Position numbers and translations under genes: made by a program. A model generated the notes under the pieces. The model ran no database searches and was not told the DNA's origin. It saw only the letters and a program-made list of their open reading frames with translations. A DNA stretch of 16,154 nt, taken from the NCBI GenBank assembly GCA_016840085.1, contig JAEOTA010000070.1, forward strand, positions 1 through 16,154. The letters run 5' to 3'. Source of the stretch: Promethearchaeota archaeon (lineage in GTDB: Archaea > Asgardarchaeota > Lokiarchaeia > Sigyniarchaeales > SOKP01). Of the stretch, positions 754 through 16,154 are shown piece after piece; positions within the stretch are counted from its first letter, which is position 1, and each line of letters opens with the position of its first letter.

Positions 754-925
754 ATAAATTTGGATTAATTTGTAAACCTTTACTTGAGTTATAGATGTAA
801 CAACACCAACCCTTCTGATTCAATTTTCCCCATGAAAATTCACCTGGGTTTTGTCATCTTATAAATTCTAAATAGGTGAGTCTTCCTTTAATTATTAGAA
901 AAGGATAAAGAGAAATGCAATTATA

Positions 926-1315
926 ATGTATGAAGAAAATTATCAGACAAAAGGTATTGAGACTAAAAGTCTTGAAGAATTATATGAAAGCTTATATAAA
1001 AACTCAGAGTTACCTGGAAAAACTCACGGATTCATGTATATTATACGTTCTGTTGATGAACAAGGAAATTTTACCGATACTCGTTGTAAGATCGGAGAGA
1101 CAAGTAAGAATGTCGATGAATACGTAAAGCGAAGATTAGATCCTAGAAATCCATATAAATTAACAATTCTTGGAGAAATAAGAGGAGGAGAATGGGAGAC
1201 AATTTTTCATATAAGATACAGAAAATACCACATCCATCATGAATAGTTTGAGTTTGTTGATGAAATGCTTGAATTTATTAGACTTTTAGAAAATAAAGGT
1301 TATAGAGTAAGATAA
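926..1315 (+). pseudogene. T5orf172/MUG113-type GIY-YIG-like protein with in-frame TAG
   Basis: GFMYII...KIGET...RRL...NPYKL...E-x2-FH motifs. TAG at 1244-1246 sits where the family's EWF Trp is expected (HHE*FEFVDEMLEFIRLLENKGYRVR, TAA at 1313-1315). Confidence 0.7.
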
Positions 1316-1320
1316 ATAAA

Positions 1321-1563
1321 ACGTTTAAGTCAGAAAAAACTAAGTCTGTTCGATATATATTTAACTTGGGAATCATATCAAGACAAAAATAGTCATTAAG
1401 TCCACTGGTTGCTCTAATTTTCAGACATTTTTGATAAAAATGATTATATTTCCTGAAATCCTTTCTAAAATCAAGAAATAGAGATTTTCCATTGTCTTGT
1501 ACTAATATTTTATTGCCTCCAATCGTATTAGTCCCATCATAAATATATAGTTATTGAAGTCAT
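1321..1563 (-). pseudogene. 5' fragment of an RNase J-like metallo-beta-lactamase-fold nuclease
   Basis: ATG at 1563 gives MTSITI, then a frameshift in an AT run, then YDGTNTIGGNKILVQDNGKSLFLDFRKDF...IPKLNIYRTDLVFSDLNV. IGGNK...FLDF(G) is the typical N-terminus of this family. Similarity ends before any HxHxDH motif. Confidence 0.7.
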
Positions 1564-1658
1564 GTTTTTTTCATATTTGGAATAATTTATTACCCAATTA
1601 TTGCTGTATATATTTAAACAGATTGCTTCAGATGTTCTAGACAATATTATAATAATTC

Positions 1659-1928
1659 TTATATCTTTTTTAATTTATTAACCCCATCAATATTTTCCCA
1701 TGTAAAATCTGGATCCATTCTGCCAAAATGTCCATATGCGGCTGTTTTTTTGTAAATTGGACGTTTTAAATTCAGATCACTTATTATTACTCCTGGTTTA
1801 AAATCAAATGTTTTTAAAACTCCATTATAAAGTCTTTCAATAGATATTTTTTCTGTTCCAAAACAATCGATATCAATTGATAAAGGTTCAGCTTCTCCAA
1901 TAGCATAAGAAACTTGAATTTCACATTT
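1659..1928 (-). pseudogene. metK: 3' fragment of bacterial/eukaryotic-type S-adenosylmethionine synthetase
   Basis: A frame not in the ORF track reads KCEIQVSYAIGEAEPLSIDIDCFGTEKISIERLYNGVLKTFDFKPGVIISDLNLKRPIYKKTAAYGHFGRMDPDFTWENIDGVNKLKKI*. There is no start codon and an in-frame TAG lies upstream at 1970-1968. Confidence 0.92.
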
Positions 1929-2200
1929 CCCAAAAACTTCTCTTTTTGTTTTCGGAGTTGTTTTGCTCTATAATCGTGATGAAAGACCTCATTCCTTATT
2001 TTTGGGCACACTTTATTTAGGAGATTTTCGATTTTATTCGAATCGCCTATAATTTGATATTTAGCAAATACTTTGACAAAATTACAAAATGAGAATTGTT
2101 CATTTAATATAGTTATTCTACAAGGACAAGGGCTAAAATTCTCATAACAAATATCAACATTATGCTTATTACAATATTCATCAATTTCCTCGAAATTCAT
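1814..2200 (-). CDS. Hypothetical protein, probably truncated; the last ~38 codons read out of frame through the metK relic
   Basis: ATG start and protein-like first ~90 aa. From ~1928 it overlaps the metK fragment in another frame. Confidence 0.4.
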   Translation of the reverse strand: MNFEEIDEYCNKHNVDICYENFSPCPCRITILNEQFSFCNFVKVFAKYQIIGDSNKIENLLNKVCPKIRNEVFHHDYRAKQLRKQKEKFLGNVKFKFLMLLEKLNLYQLISIVLEQKKYLLKDFIMEF

Positions 2201-2306
2201 AAATGTTCAATTAAAGAAAAAAAATTCATAATTAAATATTTTTCTATTTTTTTATATGTTATATGTTCTAAAATAATATAATAGTAGTATTAAGATTAAG
2301 TCTAGT

Positions 2307-2686
2307 TCAAATAATGTTAAGTTTTTTTCTGATTTCTTCTGTATCTTCAAAGATCTGCCATTTAGCAACGAGATCATTTTCAATTGTTGCAGTCCATATT
2401 GCTGGCCCGTCTAAAGGTTCGTATGAACATGTAGAATAACCAATTAAAATAACATAATTATCTTGTGATTCAACTCTGGTAAAAATATTCGGTAATCAGG
2501 GAAATCCTCGAAAAAACTCACCCAGTTTTTAGTTATCAATTCTTTTCCCTTTTCAACTCTTCCAGGAATATCGATAAATGTAAAGTCTTCTGGCATTAGG
2601 CTAGTAAGCCCTTTTATATCTTGATTATTAATATATTCATTAAACTGGAGAGCAGTTAACTTTGGATCTATTTTATTCATAATCAT
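2307..2686 (-). pseudogene. SnoaL/NTF2-like protein with a 1-nt frameshift
   Basis: FNEYINNQDIKGLTSLMPEDFTFID...W-x2-FF-x2-FPDY, then after a shift at ~2490: NIFTRVESQDNYVILIGYSTCSYEPLDGPAIWTATIENDLVAKWQIFEDTEEIRKKLNII* (TGA at 2309-2307). Confidence 0.8.
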
Positions 2687-3959: not shown

Positions 3960-4092
3960 GTTGATATTAAATAAATTTGTATTTTTCTGTTTACCATCTA
4001 CTGATTAAAAAAGATATTTTACATATACCTCATATATTATTATAAAAAAAATTAAAATCTTCTTTTTTCTTAAAAAGAATTCAGAAATCTCA

Positions 4093-5784
4093 ATGTTTTT
4101 GTCTAGAACAATGAAGAGTAAAAGAATATTTAATCCCCAAAGCGAGAGAAAGAAGTTTTTATGGGTTATTTATATTCTTATTCCAATGTTTTTAGTTACT
4201 TTAGGATTTTTGTTTATTTTTGGAAATTTAACACAATCAAAATATGGGATTAGTGAACAGGTAAAAGGGCAAATTATAGGGCTTGTTAGAGAAGCAACTG
4301 AGGATTATTTTATTGACAATTTAGGATGTAACCGTAGCGATTTGGAGATGGAAAGAGATTGGGAAGTTGAGATAATTATTTACCACTTGGGGCAAATAAA
4401 GGAACGAGGGATTGGAAAGAATACAACACTATCTATATCATTAGAAGAAGCAACAAGAAAAGCACTTGATGGCAGCCTAAATGATGAAATGGTTAAAGGT
4501 TCACGATTCGTAATTTCCTTCTTATCTCCTATTGTACACTCATTCACAATATATGGTAGGACAGGATATGAGCTTATCGAAGGTTTAGTCGCAATTCGTC
4601 AATTGGATAAAGAATTAATTAGCCAGAGAATTGAACAAGCAAAAGATTATTTGTTTCGAATAATAGATAAGAAAAATTACGGAACTCATAAATATTATTA
4701 CGCTTTAGATGATAACTTTGAGAAAAGATTGCATACAATTTACACATCTTCAGTTATTTATTCACTTCTAAAGATTTATGATTATAATAAGGATGAGAAT
4801 ATTTCTCAATATGTATACAATAGTGGTGAATTTATTCTTTCTATGCAAAATAAAGATATTGATAGTAAGTGCTATGGTGCATTCCACTATTCTTTTTATT
4901 TGGAAAATAAAGTAAAAGAAAATTATTTTGTTGTTGGAACTACTTCGAAAACTATATTTACATTATTAGAATTATATAATCGAACTGGAGATAATAAATA
5001 TTTAGAATCAGCAAAATTGGGTGCGAATTGGTTGCTTACAATGCAAAATCCAGATGGAGAGATAATATCTTGGTTGAAAAATATAAATAATGGTTGGATT
5101 TACTCAACAAAAGAATCTTATCTCTATACTGGTCAGGTCCTTTCGGCTTTATCTAGAATCTATAAAGTAACTGAAAAACAGGAATATTATAATGCAAGTC
5201 AAAAAATTGCCCAACATTTCGCAGAGATAATCGAAGAAGAAGGCTATTACTTGGGAGATGATTATCGACCACCTAATCCAATCTCAAGTTCTTGGGTCAT
5301 GCTTTCTCTTCTTGATTTTTATAAAATAAGTCAGGATGATAAATACAAAGCTATAGTTATTAATTGTAGTGAATTTCTTATTCATAGGCAAAAGACCACC
5401 AAAGAAGATCTGCTCAATTTTGGACGCTGGACAGGATCATCTACTACAAGTGGAAACGGTTGGTTATGTGAAGTTATGGTAGAGATTTATAAATTCTACA
5501 AAGAACAGAATATAATAGGATACGAGATTTATAAAGAGAACATAATAAAATCAATAATGTGGCTTATCCAGCATAGTTATTCAGAAAAAAATTCTTTTTT
5601 CATAAGAAATCCTGAAAGAGCAAATGGAGGACTAATTTGGTGTTTTGAAAATGGGGATATAGAAGTAAGAACTGATTCGGTCTGTCATGGAGTTAATGGA
5701 TATGTCGGGATTATAGATGATCTAGAAGATGGAACATTAATATCAATTCCCCAGAAATCTTTTGAAGAAATGTTGAATGGATAA
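4093..5784 (+). CDS. Membrane-anchored protein with a possible AMMECR1-like N-domain and an alpha/alpha-toroid (six-hairpin glycosidase/prenyltransferase-like) domain
   Basis: N-terminal TM. Repeated LxxxYxxTxDxKYLESAxxGAxWLLxMQNPDG-type helical hairpins. C-terminal RTDSVCH. Confidence 0.6.
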   Translation: MFLSRTMKSKRIFNPQSERKKFLWVIYILIPMFLVTLGFLFIFGNLTQSKYGISEQVKGQIIGLVREATEDYFIDNLGCNRSDLEMERDWEVEIIIYHLGQIKERGIGKNTTLSISLEEATRKALDGSLNDEMVKGSRFVISFLSPIVHSFTIYGRTGYELIEGLVAIRQLDKELISQRIEQAKDYLFRIIDKKNYGTHKYYYALDDNFEKRLHTIYTSSVIYSLLKIYDYNKDENISQYVYNSGEFILSMQNKDIDSKCYGAFHYSFYLENKVKENYFVVGTTSKTIFTLLELYNRTGDNKYLESAKLGANWLLTMQNPDGEIISWLKNINNGWIYSTKESYLYTGQVLSALSRIYKVTEKQEYYNASQKIAQHFAEIIEEEGYYLGDDYRPPNPISSSWVMLSLLDFYKISQDDKYKAIVINCSEFLIHRQKTTKEDLLNFGRWTGSSTTSGNGWLCEVMVEIYKFYKEQNIIGYEIYKENIIKSIMWLIQHSYSEKNSFFIRNPERANGGLIWCFENGDIEVRTDSVCHGVNGYVGIIDDLEDGTLISIPQKSFEEMLNG

Positions 5785-6005
5785 AATAAAATTTTTCCTA
5801 TTATTTATTAAATTCAAGCTTTTGTTATATAGCTTTTTGTAATTACAAATAATTAATGGATAGATAATTCTTTAAATTTAAAAGAAAAGGTAACAATGTT
5901 TTAACTTTTAACAACCAATCTTAATAAAATTAAAAGATTTAAAGAATAAATTATTACTCACTAAAATACAATAAAAAAATTCAAAAAAAAATATACAAAT
6001 TAAAG

Positions 6006-7568: not shown

Positions 7569-8573
7569 TTATTTTAACAAATTCAAACATTCCTGTCTTC
7601 TTTTATCCATCCTTTGTATACCCTTAAGAATTCTTTTACGAATTTCTGGTTTCATGTATTTCAATTGTTCCATCGATTTTGCTATATTTTCCTGCAATTT
7701 ATTCATTATTATTTTTTGGTCATCAGGATCTAATGAATTTACCATTTTATAATATATCTCCATGTTTTCTTCAGGATCTTGCGGAATTCTTCCGGCTAAA
7801 AGACCCCCATCTACTAAAAGTGTCTCTCCTGTTATAAAACTACTTGAATCAGATGCTAAAAATAATGCGGCATTTGCAATATCTTCTGGTAAACCTGTAC
7901 GCCTAATTGGTTGCCCCCAGGCGAGAATTTGCTTCATCAATTCTCCCCATTTTTCAGCCGATTCACGAGATAATCCATAACCTTGCCCAAAAATACCTGT
8001 TGCTATGCCTCCTGGTGCGATTGCATTTGCTCTAATTCCAAAGATTCCAAATTCCACTGCAGCTATACGTGTAAGTTGAATAATTCCCGTTTTTGAAAGA
8101 GAATAGGGGAGTGAACCCATTCCTTGCTGAAAGCCCGCTACAGAACTTGTGGTTATGAAGCATCCTGAACCTTGTTTTTTCATAATTGGTACAGAATATT
8201 TCATGCATAAGAATGCGGCGCGAAGGTGAATAGCAATAGTTTCATCGAATTCTTCTGCAGTAATATCTTCAATTGTCCCCCCAGGACCGGGATTACCTGC
8301 ATTTGAAAATACAATGTCAAGTTGCCCAAATTTCTCGATAGCAAAATCTATAGCTTTTTTTATATCAGCTTCCTGAGATACGTCAGTATGGATGTATACC
8401 GCATTTGGACCGAGTTCTTCGGCAGTTCTCTCACCCATTTCATCCCAAATATCAGCCATCACGGCTCCTTTAGCTCCTTCTTTGATGAAAAGCTTCGAAG
8501 TTGCTCTTCCAATCCCCCCGGCAGCACCCGTAATAAGCGCTACCTTTCCATCTAATATCCCCATAATAGTCAC
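7569..8573 (-). CDS. Classical short-chain dehydrogenase/reductase with a ~70-aa helical C-terminal extension
   Basis: TGAAGGIG, SNAG, S...YSLSK, IRANAIAPG and ITGETLLVDGG motifs. Confidence 0.93.
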   Translation of the reverse strand: MTIMGILDGKVALITGAAGGIGRATSKLFIKEGAKGAVMADIWDEMGERTAEELGPNAVYIHTDVSQEADIKKAIDFAIEKFGQLDIVFSNAGNPGPGGTIEDITAEEFDETIAIHLRAAFLCMKYSVPIMKKQGSGCFITTSSVAGFQQGMGSLPYSLSKTGIIQLTRIAAVEFGIFGIRANAIAPGGIATGIFGQGYGLSRESAEKWGELMKQILAWGQPIRRTGLPEDIANAALFLASDSSSFITGETLLVDGGLLAGRIPQDPEENMEIYYKMVNSLDPDDQKIIMNKLQENIAKSMEQLKYMKPEIRKRILKGIQRMDKRRQECLNLLK

Positions 8574-12074: not shown

Positions 12075-13115
12075 ATGGTAATTGAAATGAAAGAAACAGT
12101 CAAGAATTTGATGCAAGCTTTTGTCTATGAATCACAAGCGCGAAATCGGTATGAATTATATTCAAAAACTGCTAGAAATGAAGGTTTAATGTTGTTCTCA
12201 AGATTTTTTGAAGAGATAGCAGATCAAGAAAGAGAACACGCAACTTGGAATTATTTATTACTCCAAAGACTGAAGAAGGATGAGATCTTTGGAAATTTAA
12301 AGGTTGAAATTGAGAGTACTACTGTATATGGTACAACTATCGAGAATTTAAAATCCGCTATTAAAGAAGAAGCTTTTGAATTTCGCGAGATGTATCCAAA
12401 TTTTGCCTCAATAGCAAAAGAAGAAGGATATTATGAAATTGCTAAAAAAATAAACGATATTGTGAAAATTGAAAGAAATCATTTTAATCGATTACAAATG
12501 CTTTTACAACTAGCGAAAGATGATAGTTTACTTAAACGTAGTAAAATAAATGTATGGAAATGTATAGAATGTGGATTTGAAGTTCCTAGAGATGAACTAC
12601 CTGATAATTTTCAATGTCCTTCATGCAAGCATTTTAAACCTTATTTTCAGAAACACGTTTTAACGTTAGTTCAAGAAGATGATGCAGAAAAAATACTTTG
12701 GATTTGTATGGAATGTGGATATGAAGTTGTAATGAATGAATTACCAGATAATTTTCAATGTCCTTCGTGCAATCGCTCGAAAGTTTATTTTAGAAGAAGA
12801 TCTTTGAAACCTGATCATTATAAGGTATCTGTCAAAGAAGCTGAAAAAGCCATATGGAAATGTATAGAATGTGGATATGAAGTTGTAATGAATGAATTAC
12901 CAGATAAGTTTCAATGTCCTTCATGTAATCGTTCGAAAGCCTACTTCAGAAGAAAAGCTTCAAAACCGCTAAAATATGATGTATCCTTGAAACAAGCCGA
13001 AAAAGATGCCGAAAAAGCCATTTGGATCTGTTTAGAATGTGGCAACGAAGAAGAAGTCGATATGCCAGAAGGGTGGAAATGTCCTATGTGCGGTTATCCT
13101 AATACTAAAAGATAA
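12075..13115 (+). CDS. Rubrerythrin with four tandem C-terminal rubredoxin-like domains
   Basis: Diiron ligand motifs ESQA..RY, EREH, EEAFE..MY and ERNH, followed by four WxCxECG...CPxC units. Confidence 0.9.
   Translation: MVIEMKETVKNLMQAFVYESQARNRYELYSKTARNEGLMLFSRFFEEIADQEREHATWNYLLLQRLKKDEIFGNLKVEIESTTVYGTTIENLKSAIKEEAFEFREMYPNFASIAKEEGYYEIAKKINDIVKIERNHFNRLQMLLQLAKDDSLLKRSKINVWKCIECGFEVPRDELPDNFQCPSCKHFKPYFQKHVLTLVQEDDAEKILWICMECGYEVVMNELPDNFQCPSCNRSKVYFRRRSLKPDHYKVSVKEAEKAIWKCIECGYEVVMNELPDKFQCPSCNRSKAYFRRKASKPLKYDVSLKQAEKDAEKAIWICLECGNEEEVDMPEGWKCPMCGYPNTKR
12555..13100 (+). repeat. Intragenic tandem repeats encoding rubredoxin-like domains
   Basis: Trp codons open the units at 12555, 12699, 12855 and 13023. 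Units 2 and 3 share gaatgtggatatgaagttgtaatgaatgaattaccagataa exactly. Confidence 0.9.
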
Positions 13116-13767
13116 TATTAAATTCTAAATTTTAGATTTAATGCTTCAAAATAATTTTAGACAGAATTGAGACATTATGAATCTCACCTTTTCTAGTTTT
13201 TAATAATAAGTTTTTAGATAGATACTAAGTAAGAACAAATAAGGTATTATTTATTGAAAGAGGTTGATGATTTTCTGATTTGGGTAAATTTATCACAAAT
13301 AAAGAGTCTGACTTTGAAAATCATATAGTATATTACAAAGTATAGATAAAAATCTCTTTACAAAAGGCGTTAACTTAATTATATCAAAAGAAATAATTCA
13401 AAATCTTTAATTTCTTATGAAGAGGATAAGAATAAGATAATTGGGCGCGGACATTTTGCATTCTCCATTTTTTTAAGGTGTGAACTAAACGAATCGTATA
13501 TATATTCGAATTTAATAGATTTCAAAGTGCTCCATAAAATGGGGCTACTAATGAATATTTGGAAAGACATTATCATAATAGAACTGATCAATTTTATATA
13601 GTCAACAGGGTTGTTTATACTTCAGGTGATGGTGATGATTTTGAAATTTATGACTCCCAAGGTTGTTATAAATTAGTTTTCGAATATTTCACAAAAGGTA
13701 GTCACAAAAAGTAGTTGACAAGATTATTGCAGAATTATCCACTATAGAGGTTGAGACTGATATTGAT

Positions 13768-15177
13768 GTGGAAGGAATGACTCCTCTTCATTATGCATTG
13801 TGGTATATTAAGACTCATAACGATATTTATTCTCGAAGTTTTAAGAAATTACTTCCGCATATTAAAAATCTAGATAAGTCAAGTTTCCGTCTTCCTTCAG
13901 AACGTGATCCTTTTATCAGACAAAATATAATAGAGGAATACAATCAAATGGTAATTTCTGGACACGTGCCTCGTTTAGTTTATACCGTGGTTCAGAAGAA
14001 AGATTTTAAGGGGATTCCATTATCAAGACCTCCATTATATATCGGAATTACAAAAGCAGGTGGTGACCCTATCCACAAATATGCCAGATGGCGTACTCAT
14101 AAAGAAGCTTCTTATAGGCGTTATCATTTTCTAAAGTTACATGATTTAGGTCTATTAGATTTTAATATTAGAAGATGTGTAAGGCTTTTAATTGCAAGAG
14201 ATGGCATTACATACCCTCAGGCGTTTGCAAGAGTTGATGAGTATTTTGAGTTTATTCCTTTTGATATTGCCACTTCTGATCGAGAATTATTTGATCTTGA
14301 AGAATTTTTCCAAATATATATAAATCGAGAGAATAATTTTCGAGGGTGGGATTTGAGGATTAATATGGAGTTTAATAGAAAGATTGGTGGCTCACGTCAA
14401 TTAGGAGTCTCGATTAGCAGAGCTCATTTAGAATCATTAATGGAAATAGGTCTAAGGGCGATTGATATTGCTTATGTGCTTAATATGGATGAACACATTC
14501 TTTATGACCATTTATCGCTATATTGGCCAGATAAAAGTTATAAAGATATTCAGACTGAATTAATGGGTGATTTTGTGTTCGGTTTATTTGAGAAAGGATT
14601 CAGTTTTGATGAAATTCGAAAATATTATCTTATGAAAGGTACCTTTCATTGGAGCTCATTTAAGGTATCATCTGGGATTAATTTAGAATTAAAATCTTAT
14701 TATGACGTTGCCAAGGATTATAAGCCTTTATACAGGCGTCTTTCTTCTTATTATGTTAAATCATTATATCAAGTTAGAGCTGATAATTATTTTAAGCCGT
14801 TAATGATATCTTTATATCGAGAAGGTCATATTACAAGGTATCAATTGATTGATGATTTAGCACAGGAACATCTTGAGAGAAGTGGACAGAGTTCGAATCC
14901 TGTAATATTAGCTTTCTTTTGGCTCCAAGAATTAGTTTTAAAGTTGGAAATAGATTTAATGATTATAGATGGTTTGGGATATTCAGATATGGTAATTCAA
15001 TTGGGGCTTTTACAGCCTGATTATACAGCTAAAGACCGTCGTTTAATGTATAGACATATGGAGAGATTAGTTAAACGTATATATGGGAATGTATCTCTTG
15101 ATTATTTAACTGTTTTACTTAAGTCACGTTATTTAGGAGATTTAACAGGTCGACTAAATTTCTATAGTCCAGTTTAG
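13768..15177 (+). CDS. GIY-YIG nuclease-like protein with C-terminal HTH-like modules
   Basis: LVY...LYIGIT...RWRTH...DLEEFF...FNRKIGG follows the GIY-YIG order (Y, YIG, R, H, E, N). LMEIGLRAIDIAYVLNMDEHILYDHL is HTH-like, with weaker echoes at LFEKGFSFDEI and MIIDGLGYSDM. Confidence 0.65.
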   Translation: MEGMTPLHYALWYIKTHNDIYSRSFKKLLPHIKNLDKSSFRLPSERDPFIRQNIIEEYNQMVISGHVPRLVYTVVQKKDFKGIPLSRPPLYIGITKAGGDPIHKYARWRTHKEASYRRYHFLKLHDLGLLDFNIRRCVRLLIARDGITYPQAFARVDEYFEFIPFDIATSDRELFDLEEFFQIYINRENNFRGWDLRINMEFNRKIGGSRQLGVSISRAHLESLMEIGLRAIDIAYVLNMDEHILYDHLSLYWPDKSYKDIQTELMGDFVFGLFEKGFSFDEIRKYYLMKGTFHWSSFKVSSGINLELKSYYDVAKDYKPLYRRLSSYYVKSLYQVRADNYFKPLMISLYREGHITRYQLIDDLAQEHLERSGQSSNPVILAFFWLQELVLKLEIDLMIIDGLGYSDMVIQLGLLQPDYTAKDRRLMYRHMERLVKRIYGNVSLDYLTVLLKSRYLGDLTGRLNFYSPV

Positions 15178-15197
15178 TTTTTATACTTTAATTACTA

Positions 15198-15228
15198 TTT
15201 TTTTTATTTTTTTTAATTATTTTTTTTT
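15198..15228 (+). terminator. Triple oligo-T terminator of the GIY-YIG gene
   Basis: T8, T8 and T9 tracts starting 21 nt after the stop. Confidence 0.5.
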
Positions 15229-15320
15229 ATTACCTTATAATTAGGTCGTTTTTTAGGTAAATTACCCTTTTTTTATTACTTATGACTATTCAGGTTATAT
15301 TGAGAAAAATTACTTTAAAT

Positions 15321-15651
15321 TGACACCTTGAGCTTATACCCGCCCTTCTGTCTACTACTTTCGTCGCCAAAAGTAGGATTGAGCATCCAACTATGCGGCC
15401 TACCTAAAGCTCGTTCCAAGTGCCTCATAGCTTTCATTTGGCCTTGCACCAAGGTCTGATCCGTTCCAACCATTCCCTCCTACAATTTCTCTGGCTTATT
15501 TCCAAGTCATTAATATCTGTAAGAAGGTAGTGTCGTTTCAGTTATCAGATTATGGTTTTCACCATAGTAGTTTTCTACACCTTGCTTGGAGTGTGGGGCG
15601 AAGTTCCTCAGCGAGTCAAGCCCACCGTCAGCTCAACAGCTCAATGTGTCA
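15321..15651 (-). ncRNA. rnpB: RNase P RNA, archaeal type A, complete
   Basis: Manual folding of the minus strand: P1 UGACACaUUGAGCU/AGCUCAAgGUGUCA; P2 UUGAGC/GCUCAA; CR-I GAGGAACUUCGCCC pairs with CR-V ACAGAAGGGCGGGU (P4 with bulged U); P6 UCCAAG/CUUGGA; P7 CAAGGU/ACCUUG; P8; P9 with GAAA loop; ACUGAAACGACAC; GUGCAAGGCCAAAU; L15 GGU; P16; P19 with GCGA loop; no P18. Confidence 0.95.
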
Positions 15652-15671
15652 TGTTATATAATTTTTTTTCT

Positions 15672-15687
15672 TTATTAAATCCTTCTG
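15672..15687 (-). promoter_or_regulatory. Candidate BRE/TATA for the complete rnpB
   Basis: Minus-strand CAGAAGGA-TTTAATAA, with the TATA-like element starting 28 nt before P1. AT-rich context makes this weak. Confidence 0.35.
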
Positions 15688-15990
15688 TACTGACACTCGT
15701 CACCAAGCGTCAGTTGGAGCATCCAATTATGCAGCCTACCTAAAGCTCGTTCCAAGTGCCTCATAGCTTTCATTTGGCCTTGCACCAAGGTTTTAGCTCG
15801 TTCCAACCATTCCCTCCTTCAATTTCTCTGGCTTATTTCCAAGTCATCAATATGTGTAAGAAGGCAGTGTCGTTTCAGTTGCTAAAATATGGTTCTCACC
15901 ACAGTAGTTTCCTACGCTTTGCTTGGAGTGTGAGGCGATATTCCTCAGCAGGTTAAACCCACCCTCAGCACCATATCTCACTTGTGTAAT
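15681..15990 (-). pseudogene. rnpB: Second, diverged RNase P RNA gene lacking the 3' strands of P4 and P1
   Basis: Colinear with the complete copy (offset ~336 nt, roughly 85% identical by manual count, 58-nt exact match 15398-15455/15734-15791). Ends at ACAGAAGG and runs into AT-rich spacer. Confidence 0.88.
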
Positions 15991-16154
15991 TCCTTAAGAA
16001 ATATGGATAAATACAAATATAAAATTAAAAAAAAACTTAATTGTTGAACCACACTCACCCGACAAAATCAATACGGGCGCGTCCTCATGATAGAAAGATT
16101 TATCTTTGTGAAAACCTTATTATAATTAATGCCAGCAAAACCTTCCGATATAGA

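Follow-up and report, generated by a model that had tools for sequence, protein, structure and literature searches.

Tandem RNase P RNA genes in an Asgard archaeon: a truncated resident rnpB beside an apparently chimeric complete copy

RNase P RNA, the product of rnpB, is a universal, essential and normally single-copy ribozyme that is usually treated as vertically inherited, and rnpB is in use as a marker gene. Xenologous displacement of housekeeping genes in situ is a known process, as is the formation of mosaic rRNA and housekeeping genes by gene conversion, and integrative elements that occupy tRNA and tmRNA genes leave partial gene duplicates there. Free-standing GIY-YIG endonucleases of T-even phages (SegB, SegE, SegF and SegG) carry out intronless homing, in which flanking genes are co-converted (PMC2988022); one of them, SegB, is linked to tRNA genes and drives tandem segmental amplification (PMC13096335). 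Here we describe two rnpB copies in tandem in a Promethearchaeota (Asgard) metagenome-assembled genome (MAG), G000, which comprises 4.68 Mb in 89 contigs and is estimated to be 98.8% complete and 7.6% contaminated. The window analysed is the whole of one contig, C66 (16,154 nt). The locus probably records xenologous displacement of the resident rnpB by a chimeric replacement. No report of a tandem, mosaic or endonuclease-linked rnpB was found in the literature searched.

Two rnpB copies and the truncation of the resident gene

The archaeal RNase P RNA model RF00373 (RNaseP_arch; gathering score 84) matches the minus strand of the window twice, head to tail, at 15647-15325 (130.1 bits) and at 15981-15651 (90.8 bits). 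These are the only two matches in the whole genome. The original prediction had claimed tandem RNase P RNA genes here, and this Infernal/Rfam check bears it out. Identity between the copies is ~85-87%, and the longest exact run they have in common is 58 nt. The structural differences listed in the prediction are also present in the sequence. P10 is UCUGAU/AUCAGA in the downstream copy (15549-15544 / 15460-15455) and UUUAGC/GCUAAA in the upstream copy (15886-15881 / 15797-15792), a difference of four fully compensated pair changes. The P19 hairpin reads CUACUUUUG-GCGA-CGAAAGUAG downstream (15376-15355) and ACUGACGCUUG-GUGA-CGAGUGUCAGU upstream (15714-15689), the P9 loops differ (GAAA versus GAGA), and one P2 pair is swapped.

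The tandem state is exceptional within the genus genomes searched. A single RF00373 match was found in 19 of 24 same-genus genomes. Used as a DNA query against 53 genus genomes, the downstream copy matched 44, none of which contained a second complete copy; extra partial fragments turned up only in G067, G055 and G017. A further genome, G062, has two partial matches at contig ends that look like a single gene split by assembly.

The upstream copy occupies 15681-15985 on the minus strand and holds the 5' ~305 nt of the gene: P1-5', P2, P3, P4-5', P5-P12, P15/16, P2-3', P19 and ACAGAAGG. Compared with 30 or more orthologs, its homology ends at 15681, right after ACAGAAGG, and therefore the 3' strands of P4 and P1 are absent from it, as had been predicted. 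Its 90.8 bits top the gathering threshold of 84, yet the 'full-length' Infernal alignment is forced, with the last ~27 model positions (~262-288) placed on unrelated A/T-rich spacer. RNAalifold and minimum-free-energy folding did not return the canonical rnpB structure, owing to the P4 pseudoknot, and helices were hand-defined from the Rfam alignment. With the pair list derived from the downstream copy, the counts are biased in that copy's favour: three of the eight P4 pairs are broken in the upstream copy, including those beside the bulged U, and its P1 has no partner, while the downstream copy forms 8/8 pairs in P4, 12/13 in an extended P1 and 7/7 in P2, with all listed helices intact.

Over the part that remains, the upstream copy is 92.5-93.4% identical to the rnpB genes of G024 and G067. 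In a maximum-likelihood tree of 35 genus sequences, rnpB falls into two deep clades, and the upstream copy is sister to G067 (99/93) and then to G024 (97/99). The DnaJ gene of the window has 95% identity to that of G067, 91% to that of G024 and at most 86% to those of all other genus members; G067 and G024 are therefore the nearest sampled species, and the truncated copy agrees with the species tree. Its 5' flank aligns with the G024 rnpB 5' flank up to window position 16000, and a native flank at 15986-16027 (minus strand) carries a TTTATATT-type TATA element that probably served as its promoter. The upstream copy is the resident, orthologous rnpB, truncated after ACAGAAGG.

This resident copy also bears signs of decay. 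It has six singleton changes at sites that are invariant in the other 34 sequences, the highest number among the 35 (the next are 5, 5 and 4). These singletons break the P3 closing pair, one P7 pair (the sole broken P7 pair among the 35 sequences) and one P12 pair; they also weaken P15 and change the conserved joining region between P15 and P2. The mismatches that had been claimed in P2, P7 and P12 are all there, and P3 is mismatched too. Copy-specific changes in the core number 10 in 214 columns, compared with 4-5 for the downstream copy, G067 and G024, and the terminal branch of the core is ~3 times that of the complete copy (0.081 vs 0.025). The excess is small, and the truncation would therefore be recent relative to species divergence. 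These uncompensated substitutions mark the upstream copy as a decaying and presumably non-catalytic relic.

The same observations bear on whether the truncated RNA is kept for a function, be it as an S-domain/L15 decoy, as a regulator or as a structured 5' leader for the complete gene. The relic retains its native promoter, no oligo-U terminator precedes the downstream gene, and P5, P8, P9, P10, P15, P16 and P19 are still fully paired. Its P4 5' strand has two unique substitutions at 15940-15939, CC to UA, at sites where the other genus sequences have C without exception or in 29 of 33 cases. The new UA happens to give U-A and A-U pairs with the junction sequence at 15677-15676, which could be coincidental in A/T-rich DNA or a remnant of selection. 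Set against these points are the broken pairs in P3, P7 and P12, the altered joining region and the long core branch. In addition, no other genus genome searched keeps such a copy; those in G067, G055 and G017 are partial and of unequal length, as would be expected of debris. The decoy RNA that the original prediction had offered as one reading is thus unsupported, with pairs broken rather than compensated, and retention for any of these functions seems quite improbable.

Mixed ancestry of the complete copy

The downstream copy (15322-15650, minus strand) is a complete RNase P RNA gene and the only intact rnpB in the genome. Its 130.1 bits extend over model positions 1-288 and lie within the range of same-genus orthologs (119-136). 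P4 is formed by a GAGGAA... 5' strand and an ACAGAA-GGGCGGGU 3' strand with the bulged U, and the gene brings an extended P1 of its own (GACAC...GUGUC). No helix or conserved region of archaeal type A RNase P RNA (RF00373) is missing from it, whereas the upstream copy lacks the P4 and P1 that the family requires. Relative to the family, rnpB of this genus adds a P19-like GNRA hairpin between P2-3' and P4-3' and the extension of P1. An oligo-U run, UUUUUC, lies 13 nt after P1 (15304-15309, minus strand) and is a likely archaeal terminator. Because this is the only intact rnpB in a genome estimated to be 98.8% complete, the downstream copy must, to judge from its sequence, supply the RNase P activity of the cell.

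Over its whole length the downstream copy reaches no more than 87.8% identity with any gene, and in the whole-gene tree it groups with G064, G004 and G059 (100/97) in the clade opposite to the upstream copy, hereafter the rival clade. We compared the two copies at diagnostic sites, defined as those where G064, G004 and G059 are uniform, G067 and G024 are uniform, and the two groups differ. The upstream copy has the native state at 48 of these sites, the rival state at 6 and another state at 3. In the downstream copy 35 sites are rival, 20 native and 2 other, and they alternate in blocks, with 17 runs where permutation predicts 26.5 (p = 0.004). The blocks of rival type are P1-5', P2-5', P3, P10-5', P10-3', P2-3', P19 and P1-3', and those of native type are the two P4 strands, P5-P9, P11/12, P15/16 and the joining regions. 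Each helix has both strands of the same type. This includes P4, which covaries between the clades (G57:C314 and C60:G311 vs A:U and U:A) and is native on both strands in the downstream copy.

Twenty-five of the rival-type states in the downstream copy are otherwise found only in the rival clade (G064, G004 and G059; many also in G069 and G010), and some, such as P10 UCUGAU/AUCAGA, are confined to the trio G064/G004/G059. Of the 20 native states, five are derived and common only to the G024/G067 lineage, including the P9 U:A pair and A242. When the gene is partitioned, the 88 peripheral columns place the downstream copy with the trio (100/100) and at 92% identity to G064, while the 211 core columns place it with G024, G067 and the upstream copy (98/96) and at 96% identity to G024. 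Approximately unbiased (AU) tests reject a native grouping of the periphery (p = 4.7e-9) and a G064-trio grouping of the core (p = 0.022), p-values that are optimistic because the partition was picked after the pattern had been seen.

Taken by their sequences, these comparisons identify the downstream gene as a chimera, with the peripheral helices of a different same-genus rnpB clade and a core of the host-lineage type. The xenologous replacement that the original prediction had raised is supported by phylogeny, with the upstream copy beside G067/G024 and the downstream copy beside G064/G004/G059, and by synteny (below), and is refined to a chimeric one: the incoming gene is not a clean xenolog.

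Two adjacent copies in the same orientation, one of them with a native-type core, might also suggest a tandem duplication in situ followed by divergence, with no foreign DNA and with convergence in P1, P2, P10 and P19. Convergence would then have to account for the 25 states otherwise confined to the rival clade, including four compensated P10 pairs and the whole P1/P2 sequence, and for the rejection of native grouping in the periphery. The AUGACA of the 5' flank and the promoter layout are of the rival-clade type as well, and the 3' flank is a 2.1-kb stretch absent from relatives. We give such a duplication next to no chance and regard it as effectively refuted.

The insertion, its cargo and rnpB remnants in relatives

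Relative to G024, window positions 13174-15680 (2,507 nt) are an insertion that takes the place of 19 nt of the native rnpB 3' end. Synteny with G024 holds on either side of rnpB. Upstream, the G024 sequence corresponds to the end of contig C49, and its 3' flank and rubrerythrin gene match the window from 13173 downwards, so that the native flank restarts at 13173, exactly at the G024 rnpB 3' end. G067 likewise has rubrerythrin directly after rnpB. The 2.5-kb insertion coincides with the cut in the native gene and has no counterpart at the locus in G024.

Read along the minus strand, the insertion consists of a 30-nt spacer, the complete rnpB, an open reading frame of 469 aa on the opposite strand (ORF469) and ~600 nt of non-coding DNA. 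The spacer (15651-15680, minus strand) appears to be a donor-type core promoter. Its TATA-like TTTAATAA (15679-15672) lies 21 nt ahead of the GAC at the start of the downstream copy's extended P1, and the promoters of G064, G004 and G059 have TTAAATAG/T at the same 21-nt spacing, with AGAAG before it. At the join, AGAAG is provided by the relic's ACAGAAGG, a microhomology of 5 nt. Scans for sigma-70 promoters and intrinsic terminators are not applicable to archaea. The right-hand, non-coding part of the insertion was delimited by synteny with G024 (13174-13767). Apart from low-complexity A/T runs, the 2147 nt at 13174-15320 have no nucleotide relative in 135 family genomes.

A tandem of this kind could also be produced in assembly, if reads from at least two co-occurring strains or species were threaded into one contig and so created both the tandem and the mosaic. 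The MAG carries 7.6% estimated contamination, the genus is species-rich (at least 54 species genomes), and the tandem lies less than 500 nt from a contig end that stops in a repeat. The junction of relic and complete copy, like ORF469, was also absent from the JGI metagenome contigs. However, the contig ends overlap another contig by exactly 127 nt, pointing to a de Bruijn graph with k=127, and since the longest exact run common to the copies is 58 nt, the assembly path cannot have switched between them. The copy-specific bases that flank the 30-nt spacer fall within one 127-mer, as is the case for several of the mosaic switch points, and these joins should therefore exist in reads. The native-type downstream blocks differ from the upstream copy at 15 places in 214 columns; they are not copies of it, and an artefact would need a third parental population. 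The genome also has one copy of the locus, with a single DnaJ and no other rnpB, and a similar layout of relic plus complete gene is found in the independently assembled G067. On balance, we consider an artefact unlikely, and displacement of the resident gene the better account of the tandem.

The cargo gene, ORF469 (13768-15177, plus strand), is an orphan that is convergent with rnpB and absent at the locus in G024 and G067. It has no Pfam match even at E <= 10, no PHROG match and no match to PDB sequences. Its sole match in a database clustered at 90% identity is itself, it has 14 relatives among 1.8 billion cluster representatives, and it was found on three contigs in all across NCBI and Logan sources. 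It was absent from IMG/VR, as was a conserved 21-nt rnpB motif common to all genus sequences. A search with the profile of the ORF469 family gave PDB matches resembling pentatricopeptide repeats, which we rejected as spurious (~2.4 bits per repeat, summed over eight identical designer repeats).

The AlphaFold2 (AF2) model of the whole protein is mediocre, with a predicted local distance difference test (pLDDT) score of 67, and whole-protein Foldseek searches with both ORF469 models gave nothing at E <= 0.001. The N-terminal domain modelled separately (aa 52-192) reached pLDDT 83.6 and a predicted template modelling score (pTM) of 0.75, with a beta-beta-alpha...beta-alpha arrangement. In a non-Foldseek search of 48,161 PDB chains, I-TevI came first for this domain (Z 7.0, 84 of 92 residues, root-mean-square deviation [rmsd] 2.8), followed by T4 EndoII (5.6), PD-T4-3 (5.5) and UvrC (4.4), with R.Eco29kI and Slx1 lower. 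We take all six to be GIY-YIG nucleases. Residues 386-453 of the AF2 model resemble a LuxR/GerE helix-turn-helix (HTH) domain (Z 6.6, rmsd 2.2, 56 aa). By protein-language-model features, 18 of 30 matches to named ESM Atlas clusters are GIY-YIG (PF01541), a SegE-type cluster among them. Candidate catalytic residues, tentatively placed against I-TevI by eye, are Y72 (VYTV), Y91-I-G93, R107-W-R-T-H111, E178 and N186. In the ORF469 family alignment Y, G, E and Y are invariant, with N and R nearly so. ORF469 is thus probably a GIY-YIG plus HTH protein, with the putative nuclease domain at ~aa 68-190 and the HTH at ~aa 386-453; the several indications for the GIY-YIG fold concur, though none of them reaches a firm threshold by itself. 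A helical insert in the putative GIY-YIG domain (profile ~196-228) weakly matches a single pentatricopeptide-like motif, ...alrrfkklkkeGiiP..., probably spuriously.

An ORF469-like module makes up the C-terminal 480 residues of a 1322-aa protein in G041 (C21, 5832-9800, minus strand) that has no Pfam or PHROG match. The N-terminal part of that protein recurs in giant ORFs (open frames of up to ~14,500 aa) in several Promethearchaeota genomes. The YIG motif looked unconserved in the G041 protein; fold and language-model evidence favour GIY-YIG nonetheless. We considered whether ORF469, which matches only this C-terminal part, is a 5'-truncated pseudogene, and rejected the idea: one of the 14 relatives is a full-length homolog of 460 aa (P0002, 33% identity end to end), and therefore ORF469 may be complete. 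In G042 (C111), a 453-aa homolog (898-2259, minus strand) and a tRNA-Ala(GGC) gene (2312-2385, plus strand) are divergent and 53 nt apart. This is the only one of ~15 ORF469 homolog loci near a structured-RNA gene.

Partial copies of rnpB were found in three other genomes. In G067 (C104), a promoter and a 162-nt 5' rnpB fragment (3960-4121, 95.7% identical to the genome's own full gene at 7893-8205) are separated from the full gene by 3.7 kb, which contains a gene for a 1173-aa C1-peptidase/CARDB surface protein. In G055 (C32), a 74-nt 5' fragment (~5835-5908) lies 1.9 kb upstream of that genome's own rnpB, with a GNAT and an aldo-keto reductase gene between them. The third is a diverged 3' fragment of ~236 nt on a separate contig of G017 (C12, ~1390-1630). 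The breakpoints of the 5' remnants differ between genomes, at about 308 nt in G000, 162 nt in G067 and 74 nt in G055. From the remnants in G067, G055 and G017, rnpB in this genus would be a repeated landing place for DNA that bears its own rnpB sequence. The G055 fragment is closest in sequence to G049, not to the rnpB of G055 itself, and the full rnpB of G067 includes an additional hairpin, GCGAUUCUAAACCUCUUUGGAUCGC, located between the 3' strands of P4 and P1.

The recurrence of a partial 5' copy, an insert and a complete gene in G000, G067 and G055, and the presence of an IS-like repeat adjoining our locus, could also be explained by an integrase-type mobile element for which rnpB is the attachment site and which brings part of the gene along to make it whole again. 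Pfam scans of the 10 largest ORFs of the window and of the G067 and G055 inserts revealed no integrase or recombinase domain, and no direct repeats flank the insertion save the rnpB copies themselves. The cargo of the three inserts is unrelated (the GIY-YIG-like ORF, the peptidase-like surface protein, and GNAT with aldo-keto reductase). The relics also end at different positions, which argues against a common crossover core. An element of this type is very unlikely to be responsible.

The surroundings of the insertion were examined for further marks. A candidate target-site duplication (9 nt of the G024 flank against 15326-15318 and 13173-13165, by BLAST) was rejected, as it reflects only the similar P1-extension strands GUGUC/GUCUC. 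A repeat scan of 12900-16154 gave nothing besides the rnpB copies and A/T-rich noise. The rubrerythrin gene (12075-13115, plus strand; Pfam PF02915), the conserved downstream neighbour of rnpB in G024 and G067, encodes a long form of 346 aa in which a ferritin-like domain is followed by three rubredoxin-like zinc-ribbon repeats. In G064, the only rival-clade genome examined, a GNAT gene and an H+-pyrophosphatase gene stand in place of rubrerythrin beside rnpB. At the other end of the window, 16028-16154 is the end of a multi-copy insertion sequence (IS)-like repeat, which breaks the assembly ~45 nt upstream of the relic promoter. The last 127 nt of the window recur at 100% identity at the end of contig C61 and at ~80% identity at the ends of C63, C88, C85 and C30. 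The repeat lies between the window contig and its syntenic neighbour C49; both contig ends enter the inverted termini CACTCACyCGACAAAAT, with C49 ending in the inverted counterpart.

A possible route of displacement and its parallels

If the resident rnpB was displaced, a double-strand break in the 3' end of the native gene would have captured DNA from the homologous locus of an unsampled Promethearchaeota congener, and AGAAG would have served as the microhomology for the left join. The isolated or scattered differences of the conserved core would then have been converted, through heteroduplex repair or through gene conversion involving a native-type copy, while the clustered, mutually compensating differences of the peripheral helices would have stayed foreign. 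Selection would have retained only those combinations that still pair. The native-type core could have come from the resident relic, or it may have been acquired in an earlier host.

The break itself may have been made by the GIY-YIG/HTH protein encoded by ORF469, through intronless homing like that of the T4 Seg endonucleases, to which we give somewhat less than an even chance. A fuller and more tentative version is that ORF469 is an active GIY-YIG homing endonuclease that targets the rnpB 3' end and drives in a linked, cleavage-immune allele, with the chimera arising by co-conversion. A homing endonuclease as the cause is plausible but unproven. The original prediction had missed the chimeric make-up of the replacement with its native-type core, the insertion's own promoter and probable GIY-YIG gene, and the recurring 5' rnpB remnants.

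Several points weigh against this account. All of the evidence comes from a single metagenome-assembled contig. Fifteen of the 20 native states in the downstream copy are widespread in the genus and possibly retained from an ancestor, and the AU tests share the optimism described above. At least eight switch points are needed for the mosaic, a large number for ordinary gene conversion. The downstream core resembles G024 slightly more than it does the relic or G067; it has one derived site in common with G024 and is without the one derived site common to the relic and G067, so the native-type core may not stem from the resident relic. The donor lineage is unsampled, with a best peripheral match of 92% and no close relative of ORF469. 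As for the endonuclease, ORF469 has no sequence-level GIY-YIG match, its structural Z is modest (7.0), and the 15 ORF469 homolog loci in other genomes and a paralog region in G000 are without rnpB.

Gene displacement, gene conversion and possibly intronless homing are known processes; rnpB as their target is without precedent in the literature searched. The locus appears to catch a replacement of rnpB midway, with the defunct resident, its incoming substitute and the cargo still present together. The chimeric gene is in effect a natural test of ribozyme modularity, since it suggests that foreign P1, P2, P3, P10 and P19 can be combined with a native catalytic and protein-binding core if each helix keeps strands from one parent. 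Mosaic copies of this kind would mislead rnpB-based phylogenies. If ORF469 did cause the break, the range of intronless homing would widen beyond phages to include Asgard archaea and a ribozyme gene. Archaeal species would then have a means of exchanging core RNA genes laterally, and the locus would represent replacement of an essential catalytic RNA driven by a selfish element, in a natural module-swap experiment on RNase P.

Three described systems come close to this arrangement. Integrative elements that occupy tRNA and tmRNA genes likewise interrupt a structured-RNA gene with DNA that supplies intact-gene sequence, and leave a partial duplicate. Here, in contrast, no integrase or att repeats were found, the duplicate spans the 5' ~305 nt of the gene and not a short stretch at its 3' end, and breakpoints vary between genomes. 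T4 Seg homing is similar in that a candidate GIY-YIG nuclease with a C-terminal DNA-binding domain stands beside a conserved essential gene, that the neighbourhood of SegB is likewise a cluster of structured RNA (tRNA) genes, and that an allele linked to the (here putative) endonuclease replaces the resident one with patchy co-conversion of its flanks. It differs in that the host here is an Asgard archaeon and not a phage, with rnpB as the putative target, and in that a tandem relic and a chimeric gene joined at microhomology take the place of a clean allele swap. The fold assignment of ORF469, a putative nuclease, is moderately supported. In xenologous displacement, finally, a copy from a related lineage takes over the locus of an essential gene, gene and species trees conflict, and blocks of mixed ancestry are found, all of which resembles the present locus. 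The differences are that here the remnant and the replacement are still side by side, as if the event had been caught midway, and that the mosaic blocks follow the RNA helices, with both strands of each from the same parent.

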